The translations under genes were made by a program, and so were the position numbers. The notes beneath the pieces are model-generated. The model saw nothing but the letters and a program-made list of their open reading frames with translations. It was not told the origin of the DNA and searched no databases. This document shows positions 1-55,834 of a DNA stretch of 64,000 nt, piece by piece; within the stretch, counting starts at the first letter, position 1; each line of letters starts with the position of its first letter. The stretch is from a bacterium (lineage in GTDB: Bacteria > Bacillota > SLNR01 > JBMNPB01). The DNA is taken from positions 24,163 to 88,162 of the forward strand of contig JBMNPB010000007.1 of assembly GCA_050943375.1 (NCBI GenBank). The letters are read 5' to 3'.

Positions 1-81
1 GACGGCTTGCCCGCCGATCGGAAGTTTTTTCTGCAATCTCAGCATCCCCTTTAGAAAAAAAGCAGAGCGGCTGCTCTGCGG

Positions 82-10981: not shown

Positions 10982-12088
10982 TTATCTGAACGCCTTGACG
11001 TCGGCGAAAATACGGTCCAATGTCTTCTCGCGCAGCGCGCCGATGGCGGCAAAATCCATATGGGGGACATAATATGCCTCCAGGACGTCGTGGAGCTTTT
11101 TCGCCTGCGCCACGGCCTCTACCGCCCGGTCGATCAGTTCAGAGCAAAGGCGCCGATTGTCCGAAAGGAGATCGGCCGTCTGCTCCGCCGCTTCCATGTC
11201 GATACAATCATTCATATTAATGACCCGCCGAACGTTCGTCACCGGTGCAATGTGCGGCTCCGCCGCCACCGTCACTCCCACGCCAAGTTCCCCGATGGCG
11301 AGATGCTCAATTCGCCGCGGGTCGAGGGAGCAATGGAACATTTCCACGTCGTACCCTTTCGCGACGGCCGCCGCCGCCACCTTGACAAGCAGAGTAGATT
11401 TACCGGTGCCCGGCTCACCCTTGAGTACGTATTTTGCAGCCAACGGTTCAATAAGGGTATCCAGAAAATTGACCGGTCCGTCCGGGGTGATGGCGCTCCC
11501 GAACAAATGGCGCTCTTTGCCGGCGACGCCCGGCTTTCCGGCCGCCGGGATAATCTCTTCGATCAGTGCCGCCGCCTTTGCGTTCGCGACCGCCGGGTTC
11601 AGATTCTCAGTGTAGACGGACTCCCAGTCGTCGTGCACCGCCTTCGCCGCCCGCAGATAACGGTAAGCCCGGGCGAAGGAGCGTCCGACTTCTCGGGTAA
11701 CCCGAAGAATTCGGGCCTTTCCGGCCCGCAGCTCCGCCTCATCCCAGTAGTCGCCGAGATTAATGATCTCATCGACACAACCCGGATACTTCGGATCAAC
11801 CACATGAGGGGCTGTACCGTCGACTAATGCCACCCTAATCGCCGGGATGGCCACACCGTCGAGAGAGCCGCTATCCGAGGAACAATGATGCGCCTCCACA
11901 TCGTAGCCCCGCTCCAGCATCGTTTCAGCGATTCGGCGCATGAAAAAGGATTTGCCGACTCCCGGTCCTCCCTTCAATACCAAAATACGCGCCGCATCCG
12001 GTTCAATAAGATAATTGAAGAACGAGAAAAAGCCCTCTGCCGTATTCCCGCCCAGGAACATCCTGCGAATTGAACCTTTTAGTGCCAC
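10982..12088 (-). CDS. tandem double P-loop NTPase (two Walker-A ATPase domains)
   Basis: The ORF track over-extends to 12373. AAGGAGG lies 9 nt upstream of the GTG at 12088, giving a 368-aa product. It has two homologous halves, each with a Walker A motif (LKGGPGVGKSFF and LKGEPGTGKSTL) followed by GYDVE..HCS.D. Confidence 0.7.
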   Translation of the reverse strand: MALKGSIRRMFLGGNTAEGFFSFFNYLIEPDAARILVLKGGPGVGKSFFMRRIAETMLERGYDVEAHHCSSDSGSLDGVAIPAIRVALVDGTAPHVVDPKYPGCVDEIINLGDYWDEAELRAGKARILRVTREVGRSFARAYRYLRAAKAVHDDWESVYTENLNPAVANAKAAALIEEIIPAAGKPGVAGKERHLFGSAITPDGPVNFLDTLIEPLAAKYVLKGEPGTGKSTLLVKVAAAAVAKGYDVEMFHCSLDPRRIEHLAIGELGVGVTVAAEPHIAPVTNVRRVINMNDCIDMEAAEQTADLLSDNRRLCSELIDRAVEAVAQAKKLHDVLEAYYVPHMDFAAIGALREKTLDRIFADVKAFR

Positions 12089-12161
12089 GTATCCCTGCCT
12101 CCTTATACTATAATCGTTAAAGCGTAGTGCATTGTCCTGAATTATAGTATTGGAGTTGGGA

Positions 12162-12213
12162 CAAAAAGGTGCAGGAGCGAGGCACGGGTTTTCCCCGTGC
12201 TCACTCCTGCACC
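12162..12213 (-). terminator. rho-independent terminator after the selenoprotein peroxiredoxin
   Basis: A long imperfect hairpin (gtgcaggagcgaggcacggg-ttttcc-cccgtgctcactcctgcac) is followed on the minus strand by TTTTTG. Confidence 0.5.
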
Positions 12214-12320
12214 TGAATACCGGAAATAGATCTTCGAATCTCGAATTGACCTCCGCGGTTAAGTATTGTCTTTCAATACAGCAGACAAATACCCAAGATC
12301 TCACCAATCTCCAACATATT

Positions 12321-12911
12321 CTATTTTTCCGGCTTCCACTGCCGCCAGACATTACCGGCGAGTCCCGGCACAACCTTAAGCGTCGGTTTCCCTTCCTCCC
12401 AGCCTGACGGCATTACTTCGCCGGTAGCCTGGTGATGCTGATATGCTTTCAGCTGCCGCAGCAATTCACGCGGGTTCCTCCCAACCGGCGGGGTTAAAGC
12501 CTCCGCCGCCTGGATGATTCCATTCGGATCAATCAGGAAACGCCCCCGAATATTAACTCCGGCTTCTTCATCGTACACTCCATACAAGGATCCGATTTTC
12601 CCGCCCTGATCCGAAAGCATTGGGTAAGGAATACCGCCCTCAACCATATGCGATAATTCTGTTTCATTCCAAATCTTGTGCGAGTAAACACTGTCAGTAC
12701 TGACCGAAAGAACTTCGGCGTTCAGTTTCTGCAGCTCATCATAGCCAACGGCTATGCCTGATAACTCCGTCGGTCAGACAAAGGTGAAGTCACCAGGGTA
12801 AAAACAGACGATTACCCATTTGCCTTCGTAGTCTTCAAGAGATACTGTCTTGAATTCGCCTTTGTGGAATGCTTTAGCCTTAAACGACGGCGCTTTGTTG
12901 CCAACCAGCAT
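12321..12911 (-). CDS. selenocysteine-containing peroxiredoxin (AhpC/Prx family); in-frame UGA at 12776..12774 encodes Sec at the peroxidatic position
   Basis: The ORF track reports only the C-terminal 108 aa. Translating upstream from the ATG at 12911 (RBS GAGGAGG) gives [103 protein letters not shown]..., which stays in frame. The TGA replaces the Cys of the universal Prx motif FTFVCPTE. The full length is 196 aa. Confidence 0.8.
12740..12773 (-). promoter_or_regulatory. candidate bacterial SECIS hairpin(s) immediately 3' of the UGA
   Basis: mRNA: UGA-CCGACGG-aguuaucaggcauag-CCGUUGG gives a 7-bp stem with one G.U pair. An alternative fold is CAUAGCC-GUU-GGCUAUG, a perfect 7-bp stem starting 17 nt after the UGA with a G/U-containing apical loop. 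Confidence 0.45.
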
Positions 12912-12994
12912 TAATTACCCCTCCTCTATCTTTAATGAGTAATTGGTAGCTGAACATTGAATTCTTCAATTTCATTAGGAATCCTTTCAATCTA

Positions 12995-13027
12995 AATGAT
13001 AATAAGTATTATTTCTGCATTGTCAAA
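12995..13027 (-). promoter_or_regulatory. putative sigma-A promoter (TTGACA-16-TATTAT) overlapped by a Fur-family (PerR-like) AT-rich palindrome, ATAATAcTTATTAT
   Basis: On the minus strand the sequence reads TTGACAatgcagaaataatactTATTATca, about 85 nt upstream of the peroxiredoxin ATG. The palindrome covers the -10 and spacer, which is the usual PerR/Fur operator arrangement. Confidence 0.4.
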
Positions 13028-14597: not shown

Positions 14598-15374
14598 CTA
14601 ACTCACCTTCAGCTGCATCCGCAACTTGTCAGCAGCGGTAGCGATGAACTCGGAATTGGTCGGCTTGTTCTGCCGCATCCTCTGCTGCCCGAACAACGCC
14701 CTGAGTAAATCGGCGTTACCACGGTCGCAGGCAACCTCGATGGCGTGACGAATCGCCCGTTCCACCCGTTCAGGAGTCGTCGCGAAGCGTTTAGCGACAG
14801 ACGGGTACAGTTCCTTCGTCACCGCCCCCATGATTTCCATGTCCTCCAAAGCGAGCAGGATGGCCGCCCGCAGATACTGATAACCTTTAATATGGGCCGG
14901 CACGCCGATATCGCGAATTAGATTGGTCACCTCTTCACCTGGGTCACGGCGCCCGTCCGGGAGCGGCGCGGGAGCATAACTGCAAGGTGCCTGGCCGCTG
15001 CTGATCTGGCGAATCCGGTGCGCGAGAGTATCGAGACTAAACGGCTTCATGATATAATAATCCGCCCCCGTCGCCATGACCTGCCGGGCAACATTCTCCT
15101 GACCGAAAGCGGTGAGCATGATAACTTTCGGCCGGTGCGGCAATTGCATCTGCTGCATTCTCTCCAGCACCCCGATGCCATCGAGGTGCGGCATGATATT
15201 GTCGAGCAGCAGCACGTCCGCGTCCGCGCCGGGCAGGATTTCCACCGCCTCGGCCCCGTTGCCGGCAACGCCGGTCACTTCCATGTCCGGCTGCCGGCAA
15301 AGATAATCTTTGAGAACCTGCCGGAATTCCTGACTGTCGTCGGCAATAACGATTCGTACTTTCTTTTCCCCCAT
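14598..15374 (-). CDS. spo0A: stage 0 sporulation protein A (Spo0A)
   Basis: The ORF track over-extends upstream. The true start, MGEKKVRIVIADD at 15374, is preceded by GAGGAGG. The protein has a receiver domain plus the Spo0A-specific C-terminal DNA-binding domain (YPSVAKRFATTPERVERAIRHAIEVA). Its length is 258 aa. Confidence 0.9.
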   Translation of the reverse strand: MGEKKVRIVIADDSQEFRQVLKDYLCRQPDMEVTGVAGNGAEAVEILPGADADVLLLDNIMPHLDGIGVLERMQQMQLPHRPKVIMLTAFGQENVARQVMATGADYYIMKPFSLDTLAHRIRQISSGQAPCSYAPAPLPDGRRDPGEEVTNLIRDIGVPAHIKGYQYLRAAILLALEDMEIMGAVTKELYPSVAKRFATTPERVERAIRHAIEVACDRGNADLLRALFGQQRMRQNKPTNSEFIATAADKLRMQLKVS

Positions 15375-18585: not shown

Positions 18586-19155
18586 TCAGCGCAGCCCATT
18601 GATGATCGTGTCGACGAGCCCCGCATAATCGGCCGCCCCGTCGGCGTCGATAAGAACTTTTTTGGCGCTGTGCAGGCCAACCGTACCAACGATAACCAGA
18701 ACGGCCGCCTCCCGGTCGACGTCGGCGCGAAGCTGGCCGCTCGCGACGCCTTCCTCCACCAACTCCGCCAGCTGCCGGAACACAAGAATTTGCTGCTCCA
18801 GCAGAAAACGCCGGGTCGTCTCCGAAAAGAAATTGAATTGCGAGAAGAGCAGCAGCGTGTCGATCTGGTCATTCAGGAACCGGTGATGAAAGCGGGCATA
18901 AGCAAGGAGCTTCGCCCGGAAGTCAGCGCCGGCGGCGAGCGCTTCCTCCATTCCCGCCCGCAGGCGCGCGATGCTGACGCGGAGCATTTCGGCGAACAAT
19001 TCTTCCTTGCTGGCGAAATATTCGTAAATCGTTCCCTTCCCGATTCCAGCCGCCCGCGCAATATCCCTAACCTTGGCGCGCTCAAAGCCCTGCTCGGCGC
19101 AGACCTTGAGCGCCGCCTCGATAATCTCGTTCCTTTTTTTGTCGCTCAGCGTCAT
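18586..19155 (-). CDS. TetR/AcrR-family transcriptional regulator
   Basis: The ORF has an N-terminal TetR HTH (RNEIIEAALKVCAEQGFERAKVRDIARAAGIGKGTIYEYFASKEELF). It is the last gene of the efflux operon. Confidence 0.8.
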   Translation of the reverse strand: MTLSDKKRNEIIEAALKVCAEQGFERAKVRDIARAAGIGKGTIYEYFASKEELFAEMLRVSIARLRAGMEEALAAGADFRAKLLAYARFHHRFLNDQIDTLLLFSQFNFFSETTRRFLLEQQILVFRQLAELVEEGVASGQLRADVDREAAVLVIVGTVGLHSAKKVLIDADGAADYAGLVDTIINGLR

Positions 19156-19173
19156 CTTAGCGCCTCCGTCCGC

Positions 19174-22100
19174 TCAGATCTGCCGCCCGGTCGGACGCAA
19201 CCGCGCCAGCCCGGCCCGGAAATAACCGCCGCAGTCTTCCACAATGGTGTAGATAACCGGGATATAGACGAGGGTCAGCAACGTCGACAGCAGCAATCCC
19301 CCGATAACAACCACCGCCATCGGTGTACCCATTTCCGCCCCTTCCCCGCGCGCGAACGCCTGCGGGAAAAGAGCGAGAACTGTTGTCAGGGTAGTCATCA
19401 AGATCGGCCGCAGCCTGATTGGGCCGGCCTGCATAATAGCCTCCTTGCGGCTTTCGCCCTGCTGCCGCCGAATATTGATGTAATCGATAAGAACGATTGC
19501 ATTGTTGACGACGATGCCGGCCAGGACAATGAGGCCGATGAAGGCCGGTACGCTCAGGGATTTACCAGTCAGGAAAAGACCCAGTATCCCCCCGGAAAAC
19601 CCCAGCGGCATCGAGAACATGATGACGAAGGGGTGAAGCAGATTTTCGAACTGGGACGCCATGATCATATACACCAGAATGACAGCCAGCGCCAAAGCGA
19701 GCAGAAGATCCGAAAAAGCGTCCGTAAGTTCTTTCTGCTCACCGCCGAAGGAGTAATCGTACCCCTGGGGCATTTCATATTCAGCCAGCCGGGCGGCAAT
19801 ATCCCGGGAAACACTCTGCAAATCACGGCCGAAAATCTGGCTTGTCACCGTCACGACCCGGGACTGTTTCTCGCGGCTGATGGTGATCGGCCCGCGGGAA
19901 ACGGTAATCTCCGCCACCTGATCCAAAGGAACGCTCACACCGAGAGGAGTCGAAACCGGCGTCTGGCCGAGATTGGCGATGCTGTTGCTGTAAGTGGCGT
20001 CACCGCTGACTACGATGTTTATTTCTTCCCCTTCGTATTTGAAACGGCTGGCAGTTACCCCGCTCAGAACGCCTCTGATTTCCCCGGCAATTTGGCCGGC
20101 CGTGAGGCCGTATTGGGAAGCGGCCTTCCGGTCAACCGCGATCTGGACTTCCGGCACCCCTTCCGCAAGACTCGTCTCAACTTCCCGGGTCCCCGCCACA
20201 TCTTCGACGACGGCCCGGAAGTCGTCACTGATCTGCTGCAGAACGGCAATGTCGTCACCGCGGATGCTGATGCTGACCGGAGCGCCGGCCATGCCGCCGA
20301 AAGCGAAGAATGACATCGGCTGGACATTGATTTCCGCGCCGGGAACATCCCGGACGATGCTCCGGATTTCATCGGCCAGTTCGGCGCTGCTCCGGCTGCG
20401 TCCGGACAAAGGTTTCAACTTGTAATAGATCATTCCGGTGTTCGTTGCCCCGCCGCCGAACATTGCCGCGTCACCGCCCGATCCGACGGTGACAAAGACG
20501 TTATCGACTTCGGGAATCCCTTCCGTCTTCGTTTCAATCATCCGCATCAGGGCATCCGTCTCTTCCAGTTCCGAGCCGGCCGGCAGGCTGACGTCGGCCG
20601 TCACCCAGCCTTGGTCCATACTGGGAAAGAACTCGGCGCCGACGAAGACAATCGAAGCTATCGACACTGCAAACGTCACGACGCCGATAACCACCGTCGC
20701 TTTGCGGTGCGCCAGAGCCCAGGCCAGAACGCGCCGATAAGCGTCCAGCAAACGGCCGAAGAGCCGTTCAAAGCCGTCCAGGAAGCGGCCGAAAAGGCGG
20801 GGGTTGGCCGTCGGGCCGTTTTGGCCGTTAATTTTCAACAGTTTGGCGGAGAGCATCGGCACGAGTGTCAGCGAGACAATGAGGGATGTCAGCAGCGACA
20901 TGGTCACCGTAAGCGCCAGTTCCTTGAAGACAGTCGCGGTGATACCCTCAACGAAGACAATCGGCAGAAAGACAGCCACCGTCGTCAGAGTGGAAGCGGT
21001 CACGGCCATGGCGACTTCGGCTCCCCCTTTGACCGCAGCCTCGGCCCGGGAATGTCCTTCTTGCCGGAAGCGGAAGATGTTCTCCAGGACGACGATTGAG
21101 TTGTCAACCAGCATGCCGATGCCGAGGGCGAGCCCGCCGAGAGTCATCATGTTCAAGGTAACTCCGTTGAAATAAAGAAGGGTAAACGTCCCGATTATCG
21201 ATATGGGTATCGACACCCCGATAATGAGAGTCGTCCGGGCGTTGCGCAAAAACAGATACAAGATGAGCACAGCCAGAAGGCCGCCGACAAAGGCGTTGTC
21301 GAAAACGCCGCCGATGGCGAGCTTAATGAAATAAGCCTGGTCAAAAATACTGTCAATCCCCAGGCCGGGGTTTTCTTTCTGCAGTTGGGCGATTTCCGCG
21401 TTTACCGCTTCCGCCACCCGGACCGAGTTTTCTCCCGACTGTTTCATGACGTCAATAATGATGCTGGTCTTGCCGTTCGTCCGGCCCAAAGTCCTCTGTT
21501 CCCCCGGCTGCAACTGCACATCGGCCAGATCGGCCAGAGTGACGATGCCGCCGGCGGGGAGAGGGATGGTCAGCTGCCGGATATCGTCAAGAGACGCAAA
21601 CTCGCCCATCGTCCGAATGGTCAGAGACTGCTGTCCTTTTTCCACCTCTCCGCCGGGGAGGTTAAGGTTCTCCGCCCCGATAATCTGGGCCACGTAACCT
21701 ACCGATATCCCGTAACCCTGCAGTTTCAGCTGGTTAATCCGCACGGAAACTTCATTTTCGTAGCCGCCGTAAACACTGACAGCCGCTACCCCTTCCAATC
21801 TTTCCAGCCGCGGCTTGACTATATCCTCCGCCACCGCCTGGAGCTTGCCCAGATCACCCGAATTGGAAAGAGCCACCTCGACGACCGGCATGGCCGTCAT
21901 ATCCATTTTGAGAACGTTCGGCGTTTTGGCGTCGGCCGGGAGAAAACCTTTGACCAAGTCAATTTTCTCCCGCAAGTCCAAAGCGGCAAAATTCATGTCC
22001 GTTCCGAACCCGAATTGGGCGATAATAATCGAGCTGCCCTCCGACGACATTGAGTTTATCGACTCAATGCCTTCCGCCCGCGCCACCGCCTCTTCCAGCG

Positions 22101-22296
22101 GCCGGGTAATCAGTTTTTCCACTTCCTGCGGCCCCATCCCGGAACATGTTGTCTGGATGACGGCAATCGGGAGTTCTATCGCCGGCAGCATGTCAATCGG
22201 CAGCCGCCCGAGCGAAACCACCCCCAGAAGAACAATGACCAGCATCAGCATCAGAACCGTTACCGGTCTTTTAACCGAAAACTCCGACAGATTCAT
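19174..22296 (-). CDS. RND efflux permease (AcrB/AcrD/AcrF family)
   Basis: The 1040-aa ORF has 12 TM segments and two large periplasmic loops, with typical HAE1 family motifs. Confidence 0.9.
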   Translation of the reverse strand: MNLSEFSVKRPVTVLMLMLVIVLLGVVSLGRLPIDMLPAIELPIAVIQTTCSGMGPQEVEKLITRPLEEAVARAEGIESINSMSSEGSSIIIAQFGFGTDMNFAALDLREKIDLVKGFLPADAKTPNVLKMDMTAMPVVEVALSNSGDLGKLQAVAEDIVKPRLERLEGVAAVSVYGGYENEVSVRINQLKLQGYGISVGYVAQIIGAENLNLPGGEVEKGQQSLTIRTMGEFASLDDIRQLTIPLPAGGIVTLADLADVQLQPGEQRTLGRTNGKTSIIIDVMKQSGENSVRVAEAVNAEIAQLQKENPGLGIDSIFDQAYFIKLAIGGVFDNAFVGGLLAVLILYLFLRNARTTLIIGVSIPISIIGTFTLLYFNGVTLNMMTLGGLALGIGMLVDNSIVVLENIFRFRQEGHSRAEAAVKGGAEVAMAVTASTLTTVAVFLPIVFVEGITATVFKELALTVTMSLLTSLIVSLTLVPMLSAKLLKINGQNGPTANPRLFGRFLDGFERLFGRLLDAYRRVLAWALAHRKATVVIGVVTFAVSIASIVFVGAEFFPSMDQGWVTADVSLPAGSELEETDALMRMIETKTEGIPEVDNVFVTVGSGGDAAMFGGGATNTGMIYYKLKPLSGRSRSSAELADEIRSIVRDVPGAEINVQPMSFFAFGGMAGAPVSISIRGDDIAVLQQISDDFRAVVEDVAGTREVETSLAEGVPEVQIAVDRKAASQYGLTAGQIAGEIRGVLSGVTASRFKYEGEEINIVVSGDATYSNSIANLGQTPVSTPLGVSVPLDQVAEITVSRGPITISREKQSRVVTVTSQIFGRDLQSVSRDIAARLAEYEMPQGYDYSFGGEQKELTDAFSDLLLALALAVILVYMIMASQFENLLHPFVIMFSMPLGFSGGILGLFLTGKSLSVPAFIGLIVLAGIVVNNAIVLIDYINIRRQQGESRKEAIMQAGPIRLRPILMTTLTTVLALFPQAFARGEGAEMGTPMAVVVIGGLLLSTLLTLVYIPVIYTIVEDCGGYFRAGLARLRPTGRQI

Positions 22297-22297
22297 T

Positions 22298-23434
22298 TCA
22301 GTTACCTCCGACTACCCTTACTTTTTCCCCGTCGCTGACATAATCCTGGCCTTTTACGATAACCATTTCCTCCGGTTCAAGGCCTGCAGTGATCTCGACG
22401 TAGTTCCCTTCATCCAGACCGGTCGTGACGACCCGTTCTGCGGCCGCGCCATCCAAGGCGACGAAGACGACCGTCTTCCCGTCCTTCATCAGCACCGCTT
22501 CGCTGGGAACAGCGATAACGTCCTCCCTAACATCGGTGTAGAACTCCATCCGGGCAAACATCCCGGGCTTCAGAACATGGTCGGGATTGCCGACAACTAT
22601 CCGCACCGGATAGAGCTGGGTCCTCATGTCGGCGGCCGGACCGATGCTGTCGATCTTCCCGGCGAAGGGCGCATCGGCCGCGGCCGGGACGACGACTCCG
22701 ACGTCCCGGCCGGGTGAGAGGACGTTAACAATGTTCTCCGACACAGCGACATCGGCGTAAACCTTATCAATATCAACGACCGCAGCCACCGGCTGGGCAC
22801 TTGAAACCATGGCGCCGGGCGTCGCATTCAGGAGGGAGACATAACCGCTGACCGGAGCGGTGATATTCATGTCGGCCCGGAGCTCAGCCGCCTGTTCATA
22901 GGCCACCTTGGCTTGATTGAGCTGAGCCTCTGCCGTCGCGAGATTGGCCGGGGAGGCCATCATCTCCGCCTGCTCCAACTCGGCCTGGGAGATGGCGCCC
23001 TCGGCGTACAGCGCCTGCAGCCGCGCCAAATTCGTTTGCGCATTTTCAATATTCTGCCGGGTTAGGGAATATCCCGCCTCGGCCATCTGGAGCGCGGCCG
23101 CCGCCTGCTCAACCTGGCGGTCGACATCGGCCGGATCGAGAGCAACCAGCAGTTCTCCCGCCCGGATATGGTCGCCGACTTTGACCGGTGTCCGGAGCAC
23201 TTTGCCCGGCATCTTGGGCAAAACCATGACATCTTTGTCCGCCGCGAGTTTCCCGCTCAGCGTGACCGTGAGCGAAACCGTCCGCCGGGCGGCCGGTTCG
23301 ACCGTGACCGGCACGCCGGCCGCCGCTTCATCTTCCGCGCCGGCGGCGGGTGTCCCCGGACGCGCCATTCCCCGGACGACTCCGAAGCCAGCCAAGAGTA
23401 CCAGGATGATGATAATTCCGATTCGCTTTTTCAT
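22298..23434 (-). CDS. RND efflux periplasmic adaptor (membrane fusion protein, HlyD-like)
   Basis: The 378-aa ORF has a signal/anchor sequence, a coiled-coil hairpin and a beta-barrel region. It is adjacent to the RND pump. Confidence 0.85.
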   Translation of the reverse strand: MKKRIGIIIILVLLAGFGVVRGMARPGTPAAGAEDEAAAGVPVTVEPAARRTVSLTVTLSGKLAADKDVMVLPKMPGKVLRTPVKVGDHIRAGELLVALDPADVDRQVEQAAAALQMAEAGYSLTRQNIENAQTNLARLQALYAEGAISQAELEQAEMMASPANLATAEAQLNQAKVAYEQAAELRADMNITAPVSGYVSLLNATPGAMVSSAQPVAAVVDIDKVYADVAVSENIVNVLSPGRDVGVVVPAAADAPFAGKIDSIGPAADMRTQLYPVRIVVGNPDHVLKPGMFARMEFYTDVREDVIAVPSEAVLMKDGKTVVFVALDGAAAERVVTTGLDEGNYVEITAGLEPEEMVIVKGQDYVSDGEKVRVVGGN

Positions 23435-23470
23435 TCTCTTACCTCCAAACCAATCGTTTCCATCGGCAGG

Positions 23471-24754
23471 TTAGAACGCCGCCCCGCCGGCAGCGGCCGG
23501 CGCGAGTCCTTTGCACAGCCAATTATATTCGCTCTCCGCCTGCAGCAGCGCCCATTCCGCCGCTTGCGCCTTTCTCGCTTGTGCCGCGTGCCCGGATTTG
23601 ACTCCTTCCAGGGCGAGAGAGGACAGGAGCCCCAGTTCGCAGCGCAGCGTCATCTGCGCCAGCTTCCTCGTTTCCTGCTCATATTTCATCTTCTCCAGCT
23701 CCAGCGCCGCCGTCTTGTCGGCAATGGTCTGGGCTGCCTGGGCAAGTCCGGAATGATAACTCCGAATTATCTCGTTCAATTTTTCCTCTTCGCTCCGCAA
23801 TTCGGATAACAACTGCCGCGCCGTGTTGTACCAGCGCTCATCATCGTTGTCCTCGTCTTCGATGTCACTGTCCCGGATCCCGTTCTCCGACTTAAGCCGC
23901 CGCAAGGCAACTTTCTTGTCCCCGAGGCGGTATTTCTGCAGACGGATCTCGTAGCAATCCGCCTCGGCCGCCGCCGGATCCGGCGCGCTGCCGTTGTCCT
24001 CTTCACTCTCCGACACCCGGGCCGGCGGCGCTGCCAATTCCAGCGGCGCGTCGTACGGCCGTCCGAGCAGGAGATTGAAGTTCTTCACGACGTTATCAGT
24101 CTGTTTAGTTAAAAAATCAAGGCCATTGGCAGCTTCTTTCGCCTGCGCCGCGGCAGCAAGGACATCGTAATCAGCGGCGAGGCCAAGCTCGCGGCGCAGG
24201 CGGGTTACGCTCAGCTGCCGCTCCGCCATGGCCAGGCCATCAGTCAGATCCGCCTGCTGCAGCCGCAGAGTGTGATATGTAAAATAAAGATTCTCCGCCG
24301 CCCGGATAATCTGCAGATTCGCCGCTTCCATCTGCAGTTTCGTCCGCCCGATCGTTCTCTCCATGTCTTCCCGCGTGTCGAGAATCCCGACGGCCGAGTT
24401 GACCATCGCCGCTTCCTGGCCGGTGAAGTATTCCTTCAGAATGAATGAATTGAGGTCGCCAGGGTCGACAACGATACGGTCGGCCATCTCGCCGAAAGCC
24501 CGGGCCGACATGCTCGCGAGAGCAAGGCCGTCTTCCAGCGACTCATAGCCGTATTCCATGGCCCGCAGAGCTTCGGCGTTGCTCCGAATCACCGGGTTGC
24601 GCTCCGCCACCAGTCCGGCGATGTCTTCGTATCCGACCACCAGCGCCGCCTCCGTTGCCGGGACAGTCGCCCCGGCCGCTGCGATCTCCGCCGCCACAAC
24701 CGGGCCCGGCAGCAGCAGGAGCAGGAACAGACAGGCTGCGATAAGTTTTCTCAT
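23471..24754 (-). CDS. TolC-like outer-membrane efflux protein (OEP family)
   Basis: The start was moved to MRKLIAACLFLLLLLPG at 24754, which has the RBS GAGGAAGGGG and a signal peptide. Two coiled-coil/beta repeat halves are typical of TolC-family proteins. It is the first gene of the OMF-MFP-RND-TetR operon. Confidence 0.75.
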   Translation of the reverse strand: MRKLIAACLFLLLLLPGPVVAAEIAAAGATVPATEAALVVGYEDIAGLVAERNPVIRSNAEALRAMEYGYESLEDGLALASMSARAFGEMADRIVVDPGDLNSFILKEYFTGQEAAMVNSAVGILDTREDMERTIGRTKLQMEAANLQIIRAAENLYFTYHTLRLQQADLTDGLAMAERQLSVTRLRRELGLAADYDVLAAAAQAKEAANGLDFLTKQTDNVVKNFNLLLGRPYDAPLELAAPPARVSESEEDNGSAPDPAAAEADCYEIRLQKYRLGDKKVALRRLKSENGIRDSDIEDEDNDDERWYNTARQLLSELRSEEEKLNEIIRSYHSGLAQAAQTIADKTAALELEKMKYEQETRKLAQMTLRCELGLLSSLALEGVKSGHAAQARKAQAAEWALLQAESEYNWLCKGLAPAAAGGAAF

Positions 24755-25384
24755 TCTAATACCCCTTCCTCGGAATTTTGGTTCGGACAAGCCAGAACCG
24801 ACCGGTCGGTCGGTGATTGTATTATATATCCCGGACCCTCCCCCGTCAATCCCTTCTGCCCAAATCTGGCAGATTTATTTTTTCCCGGACAAGCTGGCAA
24901 TTCATTCCCTTGTCTCCCAACTCTTTCAATGATTGTCTGCGCCGGCCCGGCGGCAGGAAGAAACGACAATAATTCCGGGGAGATGCCAAAGCCATATCCT
25001 TGCAGTCGCTCATCATTGATGAGTATTTGGAAGCAAAAAGGTTCGGTTCTGTCCCCGCCGATAACGTGGGGCAAAACCGGAACAGCACCGGGAAAAGAAG
25101 AAACGGACCAGTTTAAAATTCTCTTTGCAGACAGGAAAACTTCGTTCAACTTGGCATTATGTATACTGTTTATTCTGCCCCTGTCGCAGTATAAATCATA
25201 TAAATGTCATTGTCAATATATATTAACAAAAAAGAAGCCCTTTTTGGGTCTCTTCCCTCTTGCCTTTCTCACCATTCTTGCTCTTTTCCTGCGTTTTCGG
25301 CGCGGCCCTCCGTTTCCGGCGAAAGCAGGCCGTTCTTCAAGCAAAGTTCGGAAGGAAAACGCTGTCCAATCCCGTCAATTCCAA

Positions 25385-37645: not shown

Positions 37646-40447
37646 TTATCCGTTCTGCTCGACTATCACAATGTAGTTGTCGTAATCGTAATCCACATAA
37701 GCCCCCAAGGCCTCAGCGCAGAACCGGAAAGGAATCATTGTCCGGCTGTTCAAGATCTCCGGCGCCGTGTCGGACGTAACCCGGACCCCGTTCCGGTAAG
37801 CTGCCTTGTCGCCGATGTACAGGACGATCGTATTGCCGCCGAGCGTCGCCGTAATCTTCTGCCGCGCCGGATTGGAAGCATCATATTCCACATAAGCTCC
37901 CATCGCCTCCGCGAGAGCGCGGTAAGGAATCATTGTCCGGCCGGCAGTGATGTACGGGTGAACATCGGTGAAATCGATATATTTACCGTTGCACCGGACG
38001 AGCGGCCGGGTCGCCGTACCCTTGCGGGCGGTTTCGGCTGCCGTCGTGAAGGAATAAGTCGCCGCCTCGACCGCGTAGCCGTCCGCATCTTCCACATCAT
38101 CGGTGATGTACAGATAATACTTGGTTCCGTATTTCAAGTTGTTGTCGGGATCCACCGTCACCGTCCGGGTCGAGGAAGAGTAATCCACATCGGCCGCGAC
38201 TTTGGCACTGCTGCCGGCTTCTTTCAGATAAATATTGTCGTCATCAATGGTGGAGGACTTCATCGCCCGGGAGAACTTGAACGTAATCTCCTTTTCCACC
38301 GGCACTTTCGTCGCGCCGTCCGCCGGGCTGAGGGAAGATATTTTCGCCTTCTCCGGCGCTGTTCTGAACGTCCAGTTGGAGGCGTATACCGCTGTCCCGT
38401 ACTTGTCCTGGACGCCGGTGGTGACATAGACGGTGTATTCGGTGTCGTACGCGAGGGCGCTCTTCGGCTTCAGCGTTGCCATCCGATCTCCCGAGTCATA
38501 ATCGACCGTGGCGCTGATCTTGGTCGAGGAGCCGGCCTTGCGCAGGCAGATATTCGTCGTATTGATGGTGCTGGATTTCATCGCCGTGGAAAAGGTCATC
38601 TCGATCGTCCCGTCGACCGGGAAGCCGGAACTGCCCGGCGCCGGGGTGCGCTTGATGATGTGCGGGTAATCGTCGTCCATCGTCGTGAAGGACCACTCCA
38701 CCGCCTCTATCTCGTCGCCGTGTTCGTCTTCGACCTCATCGGTCACATAGACGGTGTAGCTCTCATTGTAGCGCAGGTTGCTCTTCGGAGTCAGTGTCAC
38801 CACCCGGGTCGACTCGTTGTACTCGACCGTGGCGGAAATCTTGCTGCTGTACCCGTCCCGGCGCAGAAATACGCTGCCGCTGTCAATCGTATCCTCGTCC
38901 ATATCATCGGAGAATTTGAACGTAATTCGCGTGTCCACCGGGACGTTCGTCGCGTCTTCGGCCGGATATTTATCCTGGACGCGGACATAGTCGGGGCTGG
39001 TCGTGAAATACCAGTTTTCCGCCGTTACCCGATTACCGCTGGTATCCTTCACGTTGTTAGTGATGTAAACATAATAAGTGGTGCTTGACTGCAGTTCGGC
39101 TTTCGGTGTCAGTATTACCGTCTTATTGGAATTGCTGAAGGAAAGCGTTGCACTTATCTTCGTGGAGGAGCCGGACTTCCGCAAATACACCGTGCTGCTC
39201 GTTACTGTTGAGGTGTTGAGCGGCTTATTGAAATCGATAATAATCGGCTGGTCAAACAGAACCCCGCTATCCTTGGCGTCCGGCTCCCGGTCGACAATCA
39301 CCGGCAGTGAGCCCGCCTCGGTGGTGAAAGACCAGGAGGTCGCGCCGACCGAGCGGCCGTTCACATCTTTAAGACGGTTGCTGCCGATAGACACCGTGTA
39401 GGTCGAACTGGCATCGAGAGCGGCCAGGGGTGTCAGGGTAATCTCGCAGCGGCCGTTCACGTTAACCGGCACCACCGAAGCCGCCACAACAGCGGTTCCT
39501 TTTTTCAGAGCGACACCGGCAGTAGTGAAATCGGAGGCCGCCAAATCAAGTTCTTTGTCAAAAATCATCTCGATATCGGAGTCCACATCCACGTTCTTCG
39601 CCCCGCTGCCCGGATTGCGGCTGACTACCGCCGCGGCTGTACTTGGGTTGCCTTGGGTGGTGAAGGTGTAGCTGGCTGCCGCCGCGGCGTTGCCGGCGAG
39701 ATCCTTGATGCCGCCCGCCGCCACCCAGACCTTGTATGTAGTGCTGTAAGCCAAATCACTGGCCGGGTCGAGAATTACCGTGTCACCGCCGGCCACACTC
39801 AGGGCGGCGCTGATCTTGGTGGAACTGCCGTCCTTGGTGAGGTAGATGCTGCTGCTGTTTACCGACCCGGGCAGGATATCCTCACTGAAGGCGACTTCGA
39901 TGTTGCGATTAATCGAAACATTATATTCGCTCCCCGCCGGATCGCAATCTTTGCCGACCAGTTGCGGCGCAGTGCTGTCCTTGGTGATTCCGTGAATGTC
40001 AAACCTGACCGAGCGCAGTGCCACCGACGTATCAGTATCCAGCAGCTGCAGATTCACGGTATATGTCTTGCTGGCCGAAGGTAAGCTGATGGTATTCAAG
40101 GTCGAAGCGGAGCCCGAAGTAATCCCGTCCGGATCGTAAAGCGGGTAATAATACCCGTCCGTGAATATCTCGCCCGTCAGCCGGTAATGCCCCCCCGGCC
40201 CGAGAATATGCTCGACCCTGAGCGTAAAATCGAGGTTGGCGTTCAGAGTAGGCGAATAACCGCTGCTCTCCAAAGTGGCGATGGAAGGCAGTTCAACTTC
40301 ATTCAGCCAGATTCCGGTGAATGACCCGCTCCCGGCCAGAACGGGCGCCGGAAGCGAAACTGACGCCGCGAAAACCAAGAGAGCGAGGATGGCCGCCAGG
40401 CCGGAACGGAAACTTCTTTTCAGGTAATGCATTGGATATCCCTCCAA
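37646..40447 (-). CDS. large cell-surface protein with tandem Ig-like (Big-type) repeats and a C-terminal copper-amine-oxidase-N-type wall-association domain pair
   Basis: The 933-aa ORF has a signal peptide (MHYLKRSFRSGLAAILALLVFAASVSLPAPVLA). It has at least five repeats of about 95 aa (V/IYLRKSGSSTKISATLS...TYYVYITNNVKD...W.FTT) and C-terminal TMIPYRALAEAMGAYVEYD / TMIPFRFCAEALGAYVDYD half-repeats. Confidence 0.8.
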   Translation of the reverse strand: MEGYPMHYLKRSFRSGLAAILALLVFAASVSLPAPVLAGSGSFTGIWLNEVELPSIATLESSGYSPTLNANLDFTLRVEHILGPGGHYRLTGEIFTDGYYYPLYDPDGITSGSASTLNTISLPSASKTYTVNLQLLDTDTSVALRSVRFDIHGITKDSTAPQLVGKDCDPAGSEYNVSINRNIEVAFSEDILPGSVNSSSIYLTKDGSSTKISAALSVAGGDTVILDPASDLAYSTTYKVWVAAGGIKDLAGNAAAAASYTFTTQGNPSTAAAVVSRNPGSGAKNVDVDSDIEMIFDKELDLAASDFTTAGVALKKGTAVVAASVVPVNVNGRCEITLTPLAALDASSTYTVSIGSNRLKDVNGRSVGATSWSFTTEAGSLPVIVDREPDAKDSGVLFDQPIIIDFNKPLNTSTVTSSTVYLRKSGSSTKISATLSFSNSNKTVILTPKAELQSSTTYYVYITNNVKDTSGNRVTAENWYFTTSPDYVRVQDKYPAEDATNVPVDTRITFKFSDDMDEDTIDSGSVFLRRDGYSSKISATVEYNESTRVVTLTPKSNLRYNESYTVYVTDEVEDEHGDEIEAVEWSFTTMDDDYPHIIKRTPAPGSSGFPVDGTIEMTFSTAMKSSTINTTNICLRKAGSSTKISATVDYDSGDRMATLKPKSALAYDTEYTVYVTTGVQDKYGTAVYASNWTFRTAPEKAKISSLSPADGATKVPVEKEITFKFSRAMKSSTIDDDNIYLKEAGSSAKVAADVDYSSSTRTVTVDPDNNLKYGTKYYLYITDDVEDADGYAVEAATYSFTTAAETARKGTATRPLVRCNGKYIDFTDVHPYITAGRTMIPYRALAEAMGAYVEYDASNPARQKITATLGGNTIVLYIGDKAAYRNGVRVTSDTAPEILNSRTMIPFRFCAEALGAYVDYDYDNYIVIVEQNG

Positions 40448-42566: not shown

Positions 42567-45446
42567 TTATTTCGTCAGGGTAATGACCTCGGTGCCGAAG
42601 TTGTAGTCGACATAGAACCCGAAGGCTTCACCGACGAAGCGGAGAGGCACAACGGTCCGGCCGTCAACGACCTTCGGAGCTACTTCGAGGGTCTGCTCGA
42701 CACCGTTCACCGAAGCGACGGTGGAACCGATGGTCAGCCAGACTTCGTCGACGGTATTCTCGTCAACCCGGAGCCGGTAGCAGACCTTGTCGGGAGCAAT
42801 GAACTCGACGTAGGCACCGATGGCTTCCGCGATGTAGCGGAACGGAACCAGAGTGCGGCCGTTCTCGGCGAACGGAGCAACATCGAGAGTGCTCATCGAG
42901 CCGTTGGCAACGGCGGTCTTGTTGCCGAGCTGCATGGTGATGACACCAGCGCCGGCAGCATCAAGAGAGACTTTGATTTCGCCTTCGGCATACTCATCTT
43001 TAACGTCGGTTTCGACCTTAACTGTGATCTTGCCGGTAGATACGGGCTTGATCTTGAAGGTAACCTGGCCGTTTTCGTCAGTCTCGCTCTCGGCGGTCAA
43101 AGGACCGGTGAGTTCGACATCCTTCTCAGCATACGGCTTACCATGAGCGTCAAGAACCGTAATCGTAACGGTGGACACAACGTCGACACCGATGGCCGCC
43201 GGGGAAGCGGTGATGCTCATGCCGACAACTTCGATCTCGGCAACTTCCACACGCGGGCCGTCATCGATCTCAACTTCGAAGGTCAGGAGCATCGGCTCGT
43301 CATCGTCATCCTCTTCGTAAGCGAGGATGTCGAATTCGGCCTCGCCGTCACCCATGTCGATATCGAACTCCTCCGCGTCGTCACCAATGTCTGCCAGTTT
43401 ATCGCCATCAATCGCAAGGGTGCAGTTGTCGGGAGTGATATACAGATACGCGTCTTCGATCACGCTGTCGTCCCGCGGGTCAACCAGCTTGACTTCCCAG
43501 TTTTCTTCAACCATGTAAGTCAGCTTGGTGTCTTCGTTGGGGAGAACGAGCTTCGGCGCGAGGACTTCGATAGTTGTCTTGCCGATGAACTCGCCGTTGT
43601 CGGTCTTGAAGACAAGGTCAAGCTCTTCCGCTTCGTCGTGGACAAAGGAGAAGGAGTAGACGTTACCGTCACGGTCGAGCTCGATGTCTTCGCCATCGAT
43701 GGTAACGTATGCATTGCTATCTTTCACATACGCGCCGTCCTCGTCCTTAACGGTGAATTCAACGTCTTCTTTTAGTCCGGCTACGAGCTGCTCAGGAGCG
43801 TCAACGTCGTAGACGTCCTCGCCTTCGACATCGATCTTCACGTAGGTCATTGGTGTTCCGTCAACCTTGGTCACCAGCACAAATGCGGTGCCGACTTCGT
43901 TGAAGCGGACAGTCCTTGTGTAAATGCCGTTGTTGATGTTGGTTTTGCTGGAATCGATTTCTTCGAAATCAATCCAGTCTTCGTCGTCATCATCGTACTC
44001 ATCCGCATCGTAGTCATTGATTGAGTCTGGATTAAAGACGTCATCCCAATCCCAGTCAAAATCTTCATTGTCAACTTTCAGATAGACGACCGCGTTGTTG
44101 ACCGGGGTCTCGTCGGTCTTGGTCACGACAGCCTTGAACTCGTACTTATCTTCATAAGTAGCGGTCTCCGGGGTTACAGTGACGACCCAACCGTCAACCT
44201 TGATCTTCTCGGTCTTGGTCACTTTGTCGCCGTCTACCATAGTCGCGACGGCGGTAACCAGGATCTCGCCACCGCACTCGGGAAGGAGTCCCTCAAAAGT
44301 ATATGAGTTATCGGGAATCGATTCATCATCAACTGTCGCATCTTCATCGATGCCGCAACCTTCAACTGTAATCTTAACCTTCTCGATGTTCTCGCCGATA
44401 CCGTCACCGTCGTCATCCCAGAACTCAACCTCGAGATCGAGTTCTTTGACCGCGTCGACTTCGGTGTCGCTGAGGGAAATGTTGAAGGAAGAAGGTCTGA
44501 CGACTTTGATGGTGGTTTCACCTTCGTAGTCTCCATCTTTATCCGCTGTTACCTTGGCAGTACCAGCCTTCGGGAATTTTACAGTGATAGTGACTTTGCC
44601 GCCATCGACTGTCGTCCCAGACGCTTCGTAATCACCGAGAGTGATTTCGACGTCAGCGCCAATTACCGGCTTGCTGCCGTCTTTTACAGTAACTTCAATT
44701 ACTTCCGCCCGATCTCTGATGACGGAGGACTTGTTGACTTTAACTGACAGCGTGTCTTTCGCTGCAACTTCAAATTCATCGTATTCGATTTCGTTGTCAT
44801 CGCCGTCATCGCCACCAATCCACGGGCACTCGAGCATTACCACATAGTCGCCAGCCTTATCAAACTTGGCAGCCAGAGCGAAGGAACCGTTGGAAGCCGC
44901 TCTGGTCGAGGCAATAGCGTCACCCCTGCTATCGCCGGATTTGACAATGTACACATATGGTCTGTCTTCGAGGCTGTAGCCGGCGCCGTCTTTTACAGTA
45001 CCGGTGATGGTCTTGGTGTCACCGATCTTGATTGACGGAATGGTCAAGCTCATGTCATGCTTGGTTGTGACAGTCGTTGAAGCTAATCCGTCAGGAATAG
45101 CGCTCTCTACAAGGTCTACCACATCATCATCGATTACAATTTTGTAATCCTCGTTGTGGTCATCCGCGGCATTGATTACAACATTGAAAGAACCCGAGGA
45201 GAAAGGTCCTCCATGCGCGACGCGCTTGTTACTTCCCACCTCAAACACACCGTAGTACAAATCATCTCTGTTCGCCTTATCATCTTTCAATACAGTAACA
45301 CGAACAGTATTGGTAGTGGCTGTGAGTATGTACTCGTCGGCTTCGACCTTATAGACCGGGCCGTCAGCAAAGACCGGCGCAACGACACCGAATGTGCTGA
45401 GAAGCATAGCCAATGTCACAACTATGGCTATAAGTTTCTTCTGCAT
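42567..45446 (-). CDS. large, highly acidic cell-surface protein with a C-terminal copper-amine-oxidase-N-type domain pair
   Basis: The 959-aa ORF has a signal peptide (MQKKLIAIVVTLAMLLSTFGVVAPVFA) and Asp/Glu-rich beta-type repeats. The C-terminus carries TLVPFRYIAEAIGAYVEF / RTVVPLRFVGEAFGFYVDY, matching the wall domain of the 933-aa protein. Confidence 0.8.
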   Translation of the reverse strand: MQKKLIAIVVTLAMLLSTFGVVAPVFADGPVYKVEADEYILTATTNTVRVTVLKDDKANRDDLYYGVFEVGSNKRVAHGGPFSSGSFNVVINAADDHNEDYKIVIDDDVVDLVESAIPDGLASTTVTTKHDMSLTIPSIKIGDTKTITGTVKDGAGYSLEDRPYVYIVKSGDSRGDAIASTRAASNGSFALAAKFDKAGDYVVMLECPWIGGDDGDDNEIEYDEFEVAAKDTLSVKVNKSSVIRDRAEVIEVTVKDGSKPVIGADVEITLGDYEASGTTVDGGKVTITVKFPKAGTAKVTADKDGDYEGETTIKVVRPSSFNISLSDTEVDAVKELDLEVEFWDDDGDGIGENIEKVKITVEGCGIDEDATVDDESIPDNSYTFEGLLPECGGEILVTAVATMVDGDKVTKTEKIKVDGWVVTVTPETATYEDKYEFKAVVTKTDETPVNNAVVYLKVDNEDFDWDWDDVFNPDSINDYDADEYDDDDEDWIDFEEIDSSKTNINNGIYTRTVRFNEVGTAFVLVTKVDGTPMTYVKIDVEGEDVYDVDAPEQLVAGLKEDVEFTVKDEDGAYVKDSNAYVTIDGEDIELDRDGNVYSFSFVHDEAEELDLVFKTDNGEFIGKTTIEVLAPKLVLPNEDTKLTYMVEENWEVKLVDPRDDSVIEDAYLYITPDNCTLAIDGDKLADIGDDAEEFDIDMGDGEAEFDILAYEEDDDDEPMLLTFEVEIDDGPRVEVAEIEVVGMSITASPAAIGVDVVSTVTITVLDAHGKPYAEKDVELTGPLTAESETDENGQVTFKIKPVSTGKITVKVETDVKDEYAEGEIKVSLDAAGAGVITMQLGNKTAVANGSMSTLDVAPFAENGRTLVPFRYIAEAIGAYVEFIAPDKVCYRLRVDENTVDEVWLTIGSTVASVNGVEQTLEVAPKVVDGRTVVPLRFVGEAFGFYVDYNFGTEVITLTK

Positions 45447-54420: not shown

Positions 54421-54831
54421 CTACTCGTCGTAATCCTCTTCCTCATTCCCCGCAAAATCAAAGTCGTTGATAATGAAGCCCTGTTCCAATTCGTCCCCGT
54501 CTTCGTCGTCCCGTTCATCCGGGTCTTCCCGCTGCCGCTTGTGCAGCGGCGCCAGCAGCGGCACGCGCTGAGGTTTTTGCTTCGGCGACCATTCCCGCAA
54601 ACCCCAGAGACCGCCGCCGTAATGGAAGAAGCGGTTGTCGAGATTGATATCAGTCAGAATGGAAGCGATCAGCCGCTGCCGGCCTTCTTCCGGTCCGGCG
54701 TCTCCCGCCTGAAAGATCTGCTCCGCCAACTGCTTGTAATGCAGCGGTTCCCGGCGCTCCTTCAGAATGGCATAAGCGATGTCCGCTCTCTGGAGCCGCG
54801 GACGTACGGGCGGTTTTTCAGTTCGATTCAT
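54421..54831 (-). CDS. rpoE: DNA-directed RNA polymerase delta subunit (RpoE)
   Basis: The start was moved to MNRTEKPP at 54831, which has the RBS GGAGG. The N-terminus is HARE-HTH-like (IAYAILKERREPLHYKQLAEQIF) and the C-terminus is a strongly acidic tail (DERDDEDGDELEQGFIINDFDFAGNEEEDYDE). This Firmicute-specific subunit is consistent with the Firmicute assignment. Confidence 0.8.
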   Translation of the reverse strand: MNRTEKPPVRPRLQRADIAYAILKERREPLHYKQLAEQIFQAGDAGPEEGRQRLIASILTDINLDNRFFHYGGGLWGLREWSPKQKPQRVPLLAPLHKRQREDPDERDDEDGDELEQGFIINDFDFAGNEEEDYDE

Positions 54832-55834
54832 CACCACTCCTCCTGTCGTCGTTACAATGGAAGACCTTCCAGAGTTCATCGCGCTCCGGCGGCGCGAAGG
54901 CCTCGCTTTTCCCGCCCCGGACCAACGTCGTCCCCGCCGGGGTCACCCGGCCGATTACGGCGGCGGGAATGCCGGCCGCCTGCAGGGCGGCCAGAACGCG
55001 GTCGCCTTCCGGCGCCGCGATCAGCATCGCCCCGCTTGAGACGAGGGCATAGGGATCCAAATTGAAATAGGCGCAGATGGCCGTTGTTTCCGGCGCAACC
55101 GGTATTGCCTCCGCCCACAGCTCCACTCCCGCCCCGGCCGCGGCCGCCATCTCGGCCGCGGCGCCGAGAATGCCGCCTTCGGTGACATCGTGCATGGCAG
55201 TGGCGCCGCTTCGGGCGGCAATTCTGCCTTCCGGCAGCACGCTCACATGTTCCAGAAAACTGCGGGCCCGGGCCACCATGTCCTTTCCCAGATGTTCTTC
55301 CAGTTCGGCAGCGAACTCGGCGGCCAGGACAGCCGTCCCCTCGTACCCGGCGCCTTTGGTCAGCAACAGCGCATCGCCCGGCCTCGCCCCGCCGGTGATG
55401 ATGAATTCGTCCTTGGCCGCCCGGCCGACGGCGGTGGTGATAACGATGACCCGGTCGATGCCGGCCGTAATCTCGCTGTGTCCGCCCAGCACTTCGATAC
55501 CCATTTTCGCTGCTTCGGCGTTGATTTGCCCCATAATCCGGCCCAGATCGTCCGGCGTCGTGCTCTCGGGCGCCAGAATGGCGACGAGCAGTCCCACCGG
55601 TTCGGCGCCGCAGGCCGCGATATCGTTGCAGGAAATGTTGACGGCGAGACGACCGATATCCTGGATGGCGCCCGTTATCGGGTCGGTCGTCAGGACGCAG
55701 ACATACTCGCCGAAATCAATAACCGAACAGTCCTCCCCCAGAGCCGAATGAACGAGCACATCGTCCCGGCGGATGCCTAGATTGTTGAACACATATTGCC
55801 GCAATACTTCCGGCGGCACTTTTCCGACCTTCAT
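54818..55834 (-). CDS. AIR-synthase-related protein (PurM/HypE/ThiL superfamily)
   Basis: The 338-aa ORF has the PurM-like N domain (ALGEDCSVIDFG...LLVAILAP) and C domain. It lacks the SelD N-terminal Cys/Sec-Gly-Cys-Lys motif and the HypE C-terminal PRIC motif. It overlaps rpoE by 14 nt. Confidence 0.65.
   Translation of the reverse strand: MKVGKVPPEVLRQYVFNNLGIRRDDVLVHSALGEDCSVIDFGEYVCVLTTDPITGAIQDIGRLAVNISCNDIAACGAEPVGLLVAILAPESTTPDDLGRIMGQINAEAAKMGIEVLGGHSEITAGIDRVIVITTAVGRAAKDEFIITGGARPGDALLLTKGAGYEGTAVLAAEFAAELEEHLGKDMVARARSFLEHVSVLPEGRIAARSGATAMHDVTEGGILGAAAEMAAAAGAGVELWAEAIPVAPETTAICAYFNLDPYALVSSGAMLIAAPEGDRVLAALQAAGIPAAVIGRVTPAGTTLVRGGKSEAFAPPERDELWKVFHCNDDRRSGDESN

Follow-up and report, generated by a model that had tools for sequence, protein, structure and literature searches.

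Analysis of a 64,000-nucleotide stretch of contig JBMNPB010000007.1 from a bacterium of the Bacillota (this whole stretch is hereafter the window) revealed a peroxiredoxin (Prx) gene on the minus strand whose frame of 196 codons contains a single internal stop, the TGA at 12776..12774, at the position where peroxiredoxins carry their peroxidatic Cys. An earlier note made from the letters of the sequence had read this triplet as a selenocysteine (Sec) codon, and we confirmed the peroxiredoxin reading frame and its UGA at codon 46 as the note described them. On the evidence given below, which is drawn from sequence comparison, we consider it very probable (roughly 0.92) that a Sec-containing, thioredoxin-dependent peroxiredoxin of the PrxU family is encoded here by a functional, monocistronic gene.

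A peroxiredoxin reading frame that continues through UGA

Translation of 12911..12321 on the minus strand met no further stop and no frameshift, and the coordinates given earlier for the AhpC/Prx frame proved accurate. The ATG at 12911 is backed by a ribosome-binding site (RBS) with a GGAGG core, and a longer N-terminus is impossible because an in-frame TAA lies two codons before that ATG (12917..12915). With U entered as C, the Pfam AhpC-TSA family (PF00578) was recovered as one domain that covers residues 3-135 and spans the TGA (E = 1e-39), and the FTFVCPTE of peroxiredoxins in the PDB aligned exactly on FTFV-U-PTE (E = 1e-43 to 1e-45, residues 2-186). The active-site motif of the window protein reads P39-G-D-F-T43-F-V-U46, in agreement with PxxxTxxU, and both the domain across the TGA and the alignment to solved structures bear out the claim that the triplet occupies the peroxidatic Cys position.

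A mechanical list of open reading frames (ORFs) cuts the gene in two, giving products of 45 amino acids (aa; 12911..12774) and 108 aa (12647..12321). Since both ORFs have ATG starts, the locus might be thought to yield an N-terminal peptide and, independently, a C-terminal fragment from the ATG at 12647. Neither piece is a complete thioredoxin fold, however, and the Pfam domain runs across their junction; furthermore, nothing resembling an RBS precedes the ATG at 12647 in the stretch that was read, and the ORF length is kept across the 81 sequences introduced below. Two separate products are therefore highly improbable, and we treat the locus as one gene read through its UGA (Table 1).

Table 1. 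Features of the peroxiredoxin locus, in window coordinates. The assignments of the recoding, promoter and terminator elements are predictions.
Feature	Position	Strand	Description
prxU-type coding sequence	12321..12911	(-)	196 codons plus TAG stop; predicted Sec at codon 46
Predicted UGA Sec codon (codon 46)	12774..12776	(-)	Peroxidatic position, PxxxTxxU motif
Predicted selenocysteine insertion sequence (SECIS), core hairpin CAUAGCC-GUU-GGCUAUG	12740..12756	(-)	7-bp stem, 3-nt loop; codons 52-58 (G-I-A-V-G-Y-D)
Predicted SECIS, extended	12736..12761	(-)	Extra 3-bp lower stem (UCA/UGA) around a GG/A internal loop
RBS AGAGGAGGGG, GGAGG core 12924..12920	12918..12927	(-)	8 nt before the ATG at 12911; read from sequence
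Predicted SigA/sigma-70-type promoter	12999..13026	(-)	TTGACA 13026..13021, 16-nt spacer, TATTAT 13004..12999
Predicted intrinsic terminator	12161..12214	(-)	22-bp GC-rich compound hairpin 12214..12167, then UUUUUGU; about 110 nt past the stop

The UGA codon is conserved in the nearest relatives

A scan of GTDB with one genome per species yielded the 80 nearest loci, which are 65-83% identical to the window protein over residues 1-196 and which, together with the window gene, make up the set of 81 sequences used throughout. TGA stands at the same codon in 80/80 of these loci (81/81 with the window), in the context FTFV-TGA-PTE in 76 and FTYV-TGA-PTE in four. The TGA-bearing loci include Syntrophomonas, Pelotomaculum, Desulfitobacteriaceae, Atribacterota, Anaerolineae and Dehalococcoidia and, among cultured strains, Caloranaerobacter azorensis DSM 13643, Thermosyntropha lipolytica DSM 11003 and Alkalibacter mobilis. 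Because the nearest loci come from different species and all share TGA at that codon, the TGA is not a mutation. The earlier note had regarded TGC or TGT in close relatives as a sign of a nonsense mutation, and the outcome was the opposite; true Cys forms made up 15 of the 120 best protein-database matches and all were more distant (identity <=66%).

These comparisons bear directly on the possibility that the locus is a pseudogene, that is, an ahpC/prx gene in which TGC/TGT became TGA, whether through an inactivating nonsense mutation or through an error of sequencing. The two fragments in the mechanical ORF list, which IMG and Logan likewise annotate as 45-aa and 108-aa 'AhpC' products, would fit such a gene. 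A dead gene would be hard to reconcile with the TGA shared by every near relative, with protein conservation that is equal on either side of the TGA across the 80 loci, with a frame free of frameshifts and extra stops, with an intact promoter, RBS and terminator, or with a downstream hairpin that is under synonymous selection (see below), and we regard inactivation as very unlikely.

Protein databases show a further residue at this site. Trp occupies the Sec position in 51 of the 120 best protein-database matches, 46 of them as FTFVWPTE, and FTFVWATE also occurs. Taken at face value, these entries would suit an alternative genetic code in which TGA is read genome-wide as Trp (table 4), or else as Gly (table 25). 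In the window, however, TGA is the stop codon of 15 of the 35 genes supported by Pfam or NCBIfam, at their expected ends, and a peroxiredoxin with Trp or Gly in place of its peroxidatic residue would be catalytically dead. Reassignment of TGA is also not known from the endospore-forming Firmicutes, where Spo0A places the host, which counts further against such a code. The Trp entries come from translation of this TGA with table 4, wrongly applied to short contigs, an error that is systematic for the PrxU family, and a genome-wide reassignment is scarcely credible. Since TGA normally serves as a stop in this genome, a local signal for recoding is required at the UGA of the peroxiredoxin gene. 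Other candidates in the window for an in-frame TGA were mostly antisense or out-of-frame ORFs of the kind typical of a 58% GC genome, and none was convincing.

A hairpin downstream of the UGA fits the rules for bacterial SECIS elements

Because Rfam offers no usable model of a bacterial SECIS (a gathering search of the whole window and a search of 12650..12850 at E <= 10 returned only noise from snoRNA models), we used the published rule set together with comparative analysis. The rules for the bacterial SECIS (bSECIS) describe an upper stem of 4-16 bp capped by an apical loop of 3-9 nt, a G in one of the first two loop positions that is usually followed by G or U, a UGA-to-loop spacing of 16-37 nt and a minimum free energy (MFE) of -7.5 kcal/mol or lower (PMC13188914). 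The window hairpin falls within the limits of all four: its apical loop lies 24 nt from the UGA (positions +4..+27), and the folding energy is -7.9 kcal/mol for the 17-nt core and -10.8 kcal/mol for the extended 33 nt. It resembles the bSECIS consensus of Zhang and Gladyshev in the G-U start of the loop and in its site within the coding sequence directly after the UGA, whereas the bulged U of the E. coli fdhF-type SECIS is not evident. The earlier note had proposed two alternative stem-loops here; the one at 12756..12740 is real and conserved, and the other, a 3-bp stem, carries no weight.

Conservation of the pairing was assessed in an alignment of 56 sequences with a window-type hairpin, with pairs counted over the 49 distinct sequences among them. 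The lower stem of the extended structure is not conserved in these relatives (positions 17-40 are paired in 18/49 and positions 18-39 in 22/49) and may be incidental in the window. Overall pairing amounts to 82%, compared with 24-47% when the partner columns are slid, and 1 of 500 shuffles gave a covariation score as high. None of the five core pairs is broken in any sequence, G-U substitutions occurring in isolation three times, and the closing pair is C-G in 36 sequences, U-A in eight and G-C in one, amounting to nine compensatory changes. Loop positions G28 and U29 are invariant in the 56 sequences, and the relatives have loops of 3 or 5 nt on stems of 5-7 bp.

Codon choice in this segment points the same way. 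In a synonymous-resampling null, in which the peptide was fixed and the codons were redrawn 20,000 times from the window's own usage, all seven stem pairs formed in 0.7% of resamplings (p = 0.007), and the p value for the overall MFE was 0.13. The stem depends on ATA, a rare codon that makes up 6.4% of the Ile codons in the window. Across the 81 sequences, the normalised entropy of synonymous sites is 0.91 gene-wide, near saturation, versus 0.66 for codons 47-58. Within that segment Ile53 is ATA in 54/54, whereas Ile50 varies freely among ATT, ATA and ATC, and other hairpin codons are similarly frozen (His52 CAC in 42/45, Ala54 GCC in 72/81, Gly56 GGC in 36/37 and Tyr57 TAT in 69/79). These comparisons show that the hairpin is under synonymous-site selection and that its stem shows covariation.

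A sister clade uses a second SECIS design. In 25 loci of the Chloroflexi type (within L048-L080, for example L069:3136-3195, L073 and L080), the stem (U)GACGGC-AGUU-GCCGUC(A) is encoded by A-V-A-V-K, with AGUU or GGUC loops and the loop at +21..24; the design of the window's own clade, CAUAGCC-GUN-GGCUAUG, has its loop at +28..30 and its stem encoded by I-A-V-G-Y. As judged from these alignments, the PrxU family maintains its SECIS by two designs that differ in both register and sequence. The stem that is locked to the peptide I-A-V-G-Y would offer a clean case from nature in which an RNA element co-evolves with a protein segment that shares its codons, and the 81 sequences with their two designs could seed a family-specific SECIS model.

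Probable selenocysteine decoding in the host

Several observations weigh against a functional selenoprotein gene. The single-sequence fold of the hairpin was unremarkable relative to dinucleotide shuffles (z = -0.2), so that the case for the hairpin rests on the comparative data. Two homologues of the Cys form were examined at the DNA level: one retains only a 3-bp remnant, and the other, a TGC-bearing locus on a Logan contig (L082:501-1103, SRR28530380), keeps a hairpin, GACCGC-GGUC-GCGGUC, at the SECIS position. Judging by these two Cys forms, a similar hairpin alone is not diagnostic of Sec. The one kept in L082 looks like a fossil SECIS left after a recent Sec-to-Cys conversion. Finally, selA, selB, selD and the gene for tRNA-Sec were all absent from the 64-kb window.

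Absence of the sel genes and of tRNA-Sec from the window is what would be seen if the locus were a relic, with gene and SECIS intact but the Sec machinery lost in the lineage, so that only the 45-aa peptide is made, and loss of selenoproteins and of the Sec trait is documented in bacteria (PMC1794560). Yet 64 kb is a small fraction of the genome and absence there says little. Moreover, the locus shows no decay: the hairpin forms 7/7 pairs, the rare ATA is retained and the expression signals are intact. A relic is in our view unlikely, and the preferred reading remains a functional selenoprotein gene. We infer that the host has the Sec-decoding trait because gene and SECIS are intact, with selA, selB, selC and selD elsewhere in its genome. 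The gene would then mark this host, an uncultured, Spo0A-bearing and presumably anaerobic Firmicute known as a metagenome-assembled genome, as one that decodes Sec and invests selenium in its defence against peroxide.

One protein in the window was considered as a SelD candidate and rejected. This 338-aa protein with AIRS and AIRS_C domains (54818..55834, (-)) scored 94 bits against TIGR00476, for which the cut-off is 125, and lacks the N-terminal Cys/Sec-Gly-Cys-Lys motif of SelD. Its best match was HypE (115 versus a cut-off of 252), and it scored 96 against ThiL, with a cut-off of 184.

The window gene is a new member of the PrxU family

With U entered as C, the window protein scored 322.3 bits (E = 1.8e-96) against the NCBIfam equivalog model NF040737, peroxi_PrxU, which has a cut-off of 270, and the next best model, AhpC TIGR03137, remained under its cut-off (188.3 bits versus 272). 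Together with the conserved TGA and the fit of the hairpin to the bSECIS rules, this score supports the earlier assignment to the Sec-peroxiredoxins of the PrxU type. The window gene thereby adds a member to a family that is already known and curated. PrxU of Eubacterium (Peptoclostridium) acidaminophilum is reported to have been first described by Söhling et al. 2001 (Biol Chem 382:979).

The earlier statement that Sec-peroxiredoxins are rare did not hold up. A curated NCBI model represents the family, and comparative selenoproteome papers have included it in their counts since 2005-2006, so that it is neither especially rare nor hidden. Sec-Prx (TxxU) is among the experimentally verified prokaryotic selenoproteins, for which Söhling et al. 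2001 is given as the source, and had been counted in 12 genomes by 2006, including Syntrophomonas wolfei and Symbiobacterium thermophilum (PMC13188914, PMC1794560).

With PrxU the window gene shares an AhpC/Prx1-type fold, a PxxxTxxU motif with UGA as its peroxidatic codon, a SECIS within the coding sequence directly downstream, the absence of the canonical C-terminal resolving Cys and a Cys ten residues before the Sec. The match covers positions 38-232 of the 233 in NF040737 and is thus short of full length. Chloroflexi-type and many other PrxU members have an N-terminal extension of about 37 residues with D-x-C-V-x-P-A-K-G-P-I that the window protein and most of its clade lack. At least 50 of the 80 loci are equally short, in that their Sec codon has no start codon further than 60 codons ahead of it, and the missing extension is better read as characteristic of a subfamily than as defining. 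Extensions of 35-100 residues with D-x-C-V-x-P-A-K/R-G-P-I occur in both Sec and Cys forms (L048, L058, L063-L077; P0014, P0015, P0023, P0025), and the Cys of the extension in these long forms could be a resolving or relay residue. A smaller difference lies in the active site, where one group of relatives (for example P0058, P0067 and P0078) has U-A-T-E or U-G-T-E and the window protein has U-P-T-E.

The best relatives of known structure are typical 2-Cys Prx/AhpC proteins (for example Salmonella 1yep/4ma9, Amphibacillus 1we0 and human Prx1/2). They share with the window protein the FTFVCPTE context, the arginine of RGxFxIDP and the C-terminal GEVxPxGW. They differ from it in having the peroxidatic Cys where the window protein is predicted to have Sec, and in having the resolving Cys of GEVCPAGW (the VCP motif), which in the window GEVMPSGW is replaced by Met167. 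The resolving-Cys position is M, L, T, I or A, and never Cys, in the 81 loci and in the 120 protein matches. No ahpF gene adjoins the locus, whose neighbours encode an APH-family kinase, Spo0A and a PRK06851 ATPase.

Other selenoproteins fall within the same Pfam family PF00578, namely the Prx-like thiol:disulfide oxidoreductases (UxxC/UxxU) and Prx-SUH (NF045827). In contrast to the UxxC/UxxU or CxxU families, the window protein, with TxxU, has no partner Cys at +/-3, and neither the UxxC/UxxU Prx-like proteins nor Prx-SUH were among its NCBIfam matches.

Proposed catalytic cycle and the invariant Cys36

We propose that translation begins at the ATG at 12911 and that SelB carrying Sec-tRNA(Sec) would bind the mRNA hairpin at 12756..12740, with its GUU loop, downstream of the UGA at 12776..12774, so that Sec would be inserted in place of termination to give a 196-residue protein. 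Sec46 would then attack the O-O bond of the peroxide, forming a selenenic acid that a thiol partner would reduce. Because the canonical C-terminal resolving Cys is absent, recycling must use either thioredoxin directly or the family-specific Cys36, which lies ten residues before Sec46 and is invariant in 81/81 sequences. We infer Sec insertion, the reductant and the resolving step for the window protein. As a separate observation, the Cys-form homologue L082 has Tyr where its relatives have the near-invariant Cys36.

The invariant Cys36 and the lack of a canonical resolving Cys raise the question of how PrxU enzymes are recycled. It is conceivable, although we hold it to be doubtful, that the short forms make up a large and uncharacterised PrxU clade, mainly of Firmicutes and Atribacterota, that has lost both candidates for a resolving Cys (the C-terminal one and the C-x-x-P of the extension) and has kept Cys36. 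If a Cys36-Sec46 selenenylsulfide does form, the resolving geometry would be one undescribed for any peroxiredoxin subfamily.

Transcription unit and existing annotation

The earlier note had also given the gene a promoter and a terminator of its own, and predicted signals for both were identified. The TTGACA-16-TATTAT site agrees with the consensus at 11 of 12 positions and was the best site in the 1.3 kb scanned. The terminator hairpin, which is followed by UUUUU, folds at -43.3 kcal/mol (z = -8.7), with 0 of 200 shuffles as stable. A consensus terminator scan of this strand had reported none, a false negative that was corrected by direct folding and whose probable cause is a one-base bulge that takes the long terminator stem beyond the limits of the pattern. 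The next gene, encoding a double P-loop ATPase of the PRK06851 family (10982-12088, (-)), has a GTG start at 12088 and an AAGGAGG of its own; its score against NF005320, 336 bits, is under the cut-off of 556. From the predicted promoter and terminator and the separate AAGGAGG of the next gene, the peroxiredoxin gene therefore appears to be a self-contained, monocistronic transcription unit. The mechanical ORF of the ATPase, which starts at a TTG (12373), overextends into the peroxiredoxin gene, the real start being the GTG at 12088.

The expectation that standard annotation would list the gene as truncated or as a pseudogene holds for pipelines of the Prodigal type, since the IMG and Logan gene calls give the two pieces as separate products, but probably not for NCBI PGAP. 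The window belongs to a 93-kb contig, and its sequence recurs in IMG and in a Logan assembly of SRR31066179. Neither fragment was found in NCBI, and a version of the full-length product with X had no exact match in the collection searched. Between the accessions MGI5838844.1 (the PRK06851 ATPase) and MGI5838847.1 (Spo0A) there is room for exactly two entries, which would be the peroxiredoxin and the APH-family kinase. This suggests that PGAP annotated a protein here, the full selenoprotein being its likeliest form. The locus is a textbook selenoprotein that Prodigal-type pipelines split or that is mistranslated as Trp. Current understanding is unchanged by it, since nothing about the family, about how Sec is inserted or about this annotation pitfall is new.

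Genomic context of the host

The gene for Spo0A, a marker of endospore formers, lies at 14598-15374 (-), a few kb from an RND efflux operon of the order TetR-AcrB-HlyD (18586-24790, (-)). An ORF of 439 aa after the RND operon (23471-24790) has no Pfam match and occupies the position of an outer-membrane factor. The combination of Spo0A with an RND operon followed by such an ORF hints at a diderm or otherwise atypical Firmicute lineage.

Other genes of the window concern the cell envelope. Two proteins of 933 and 959 aa, encoded at 37646-40447 (-) and 42567-45446 (-), carry repeated bacterial Ig-like domains (Big_5 x6, Big_1) and C-terminal Cu_amine_oxidN1 domains, as is typical of Firmicute cell-surface proteins. 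The segment 25385-34955 (-) is a cell-envelope polysaccharide cluster that encodes a pyruvyl transferase, two or three GT4 glycosyltransferases, an NAD-epimerase, a MurJ-type flippase, a Wzy_C O-antigen ligase-like protein and a 668-aa DUF5693 protein.

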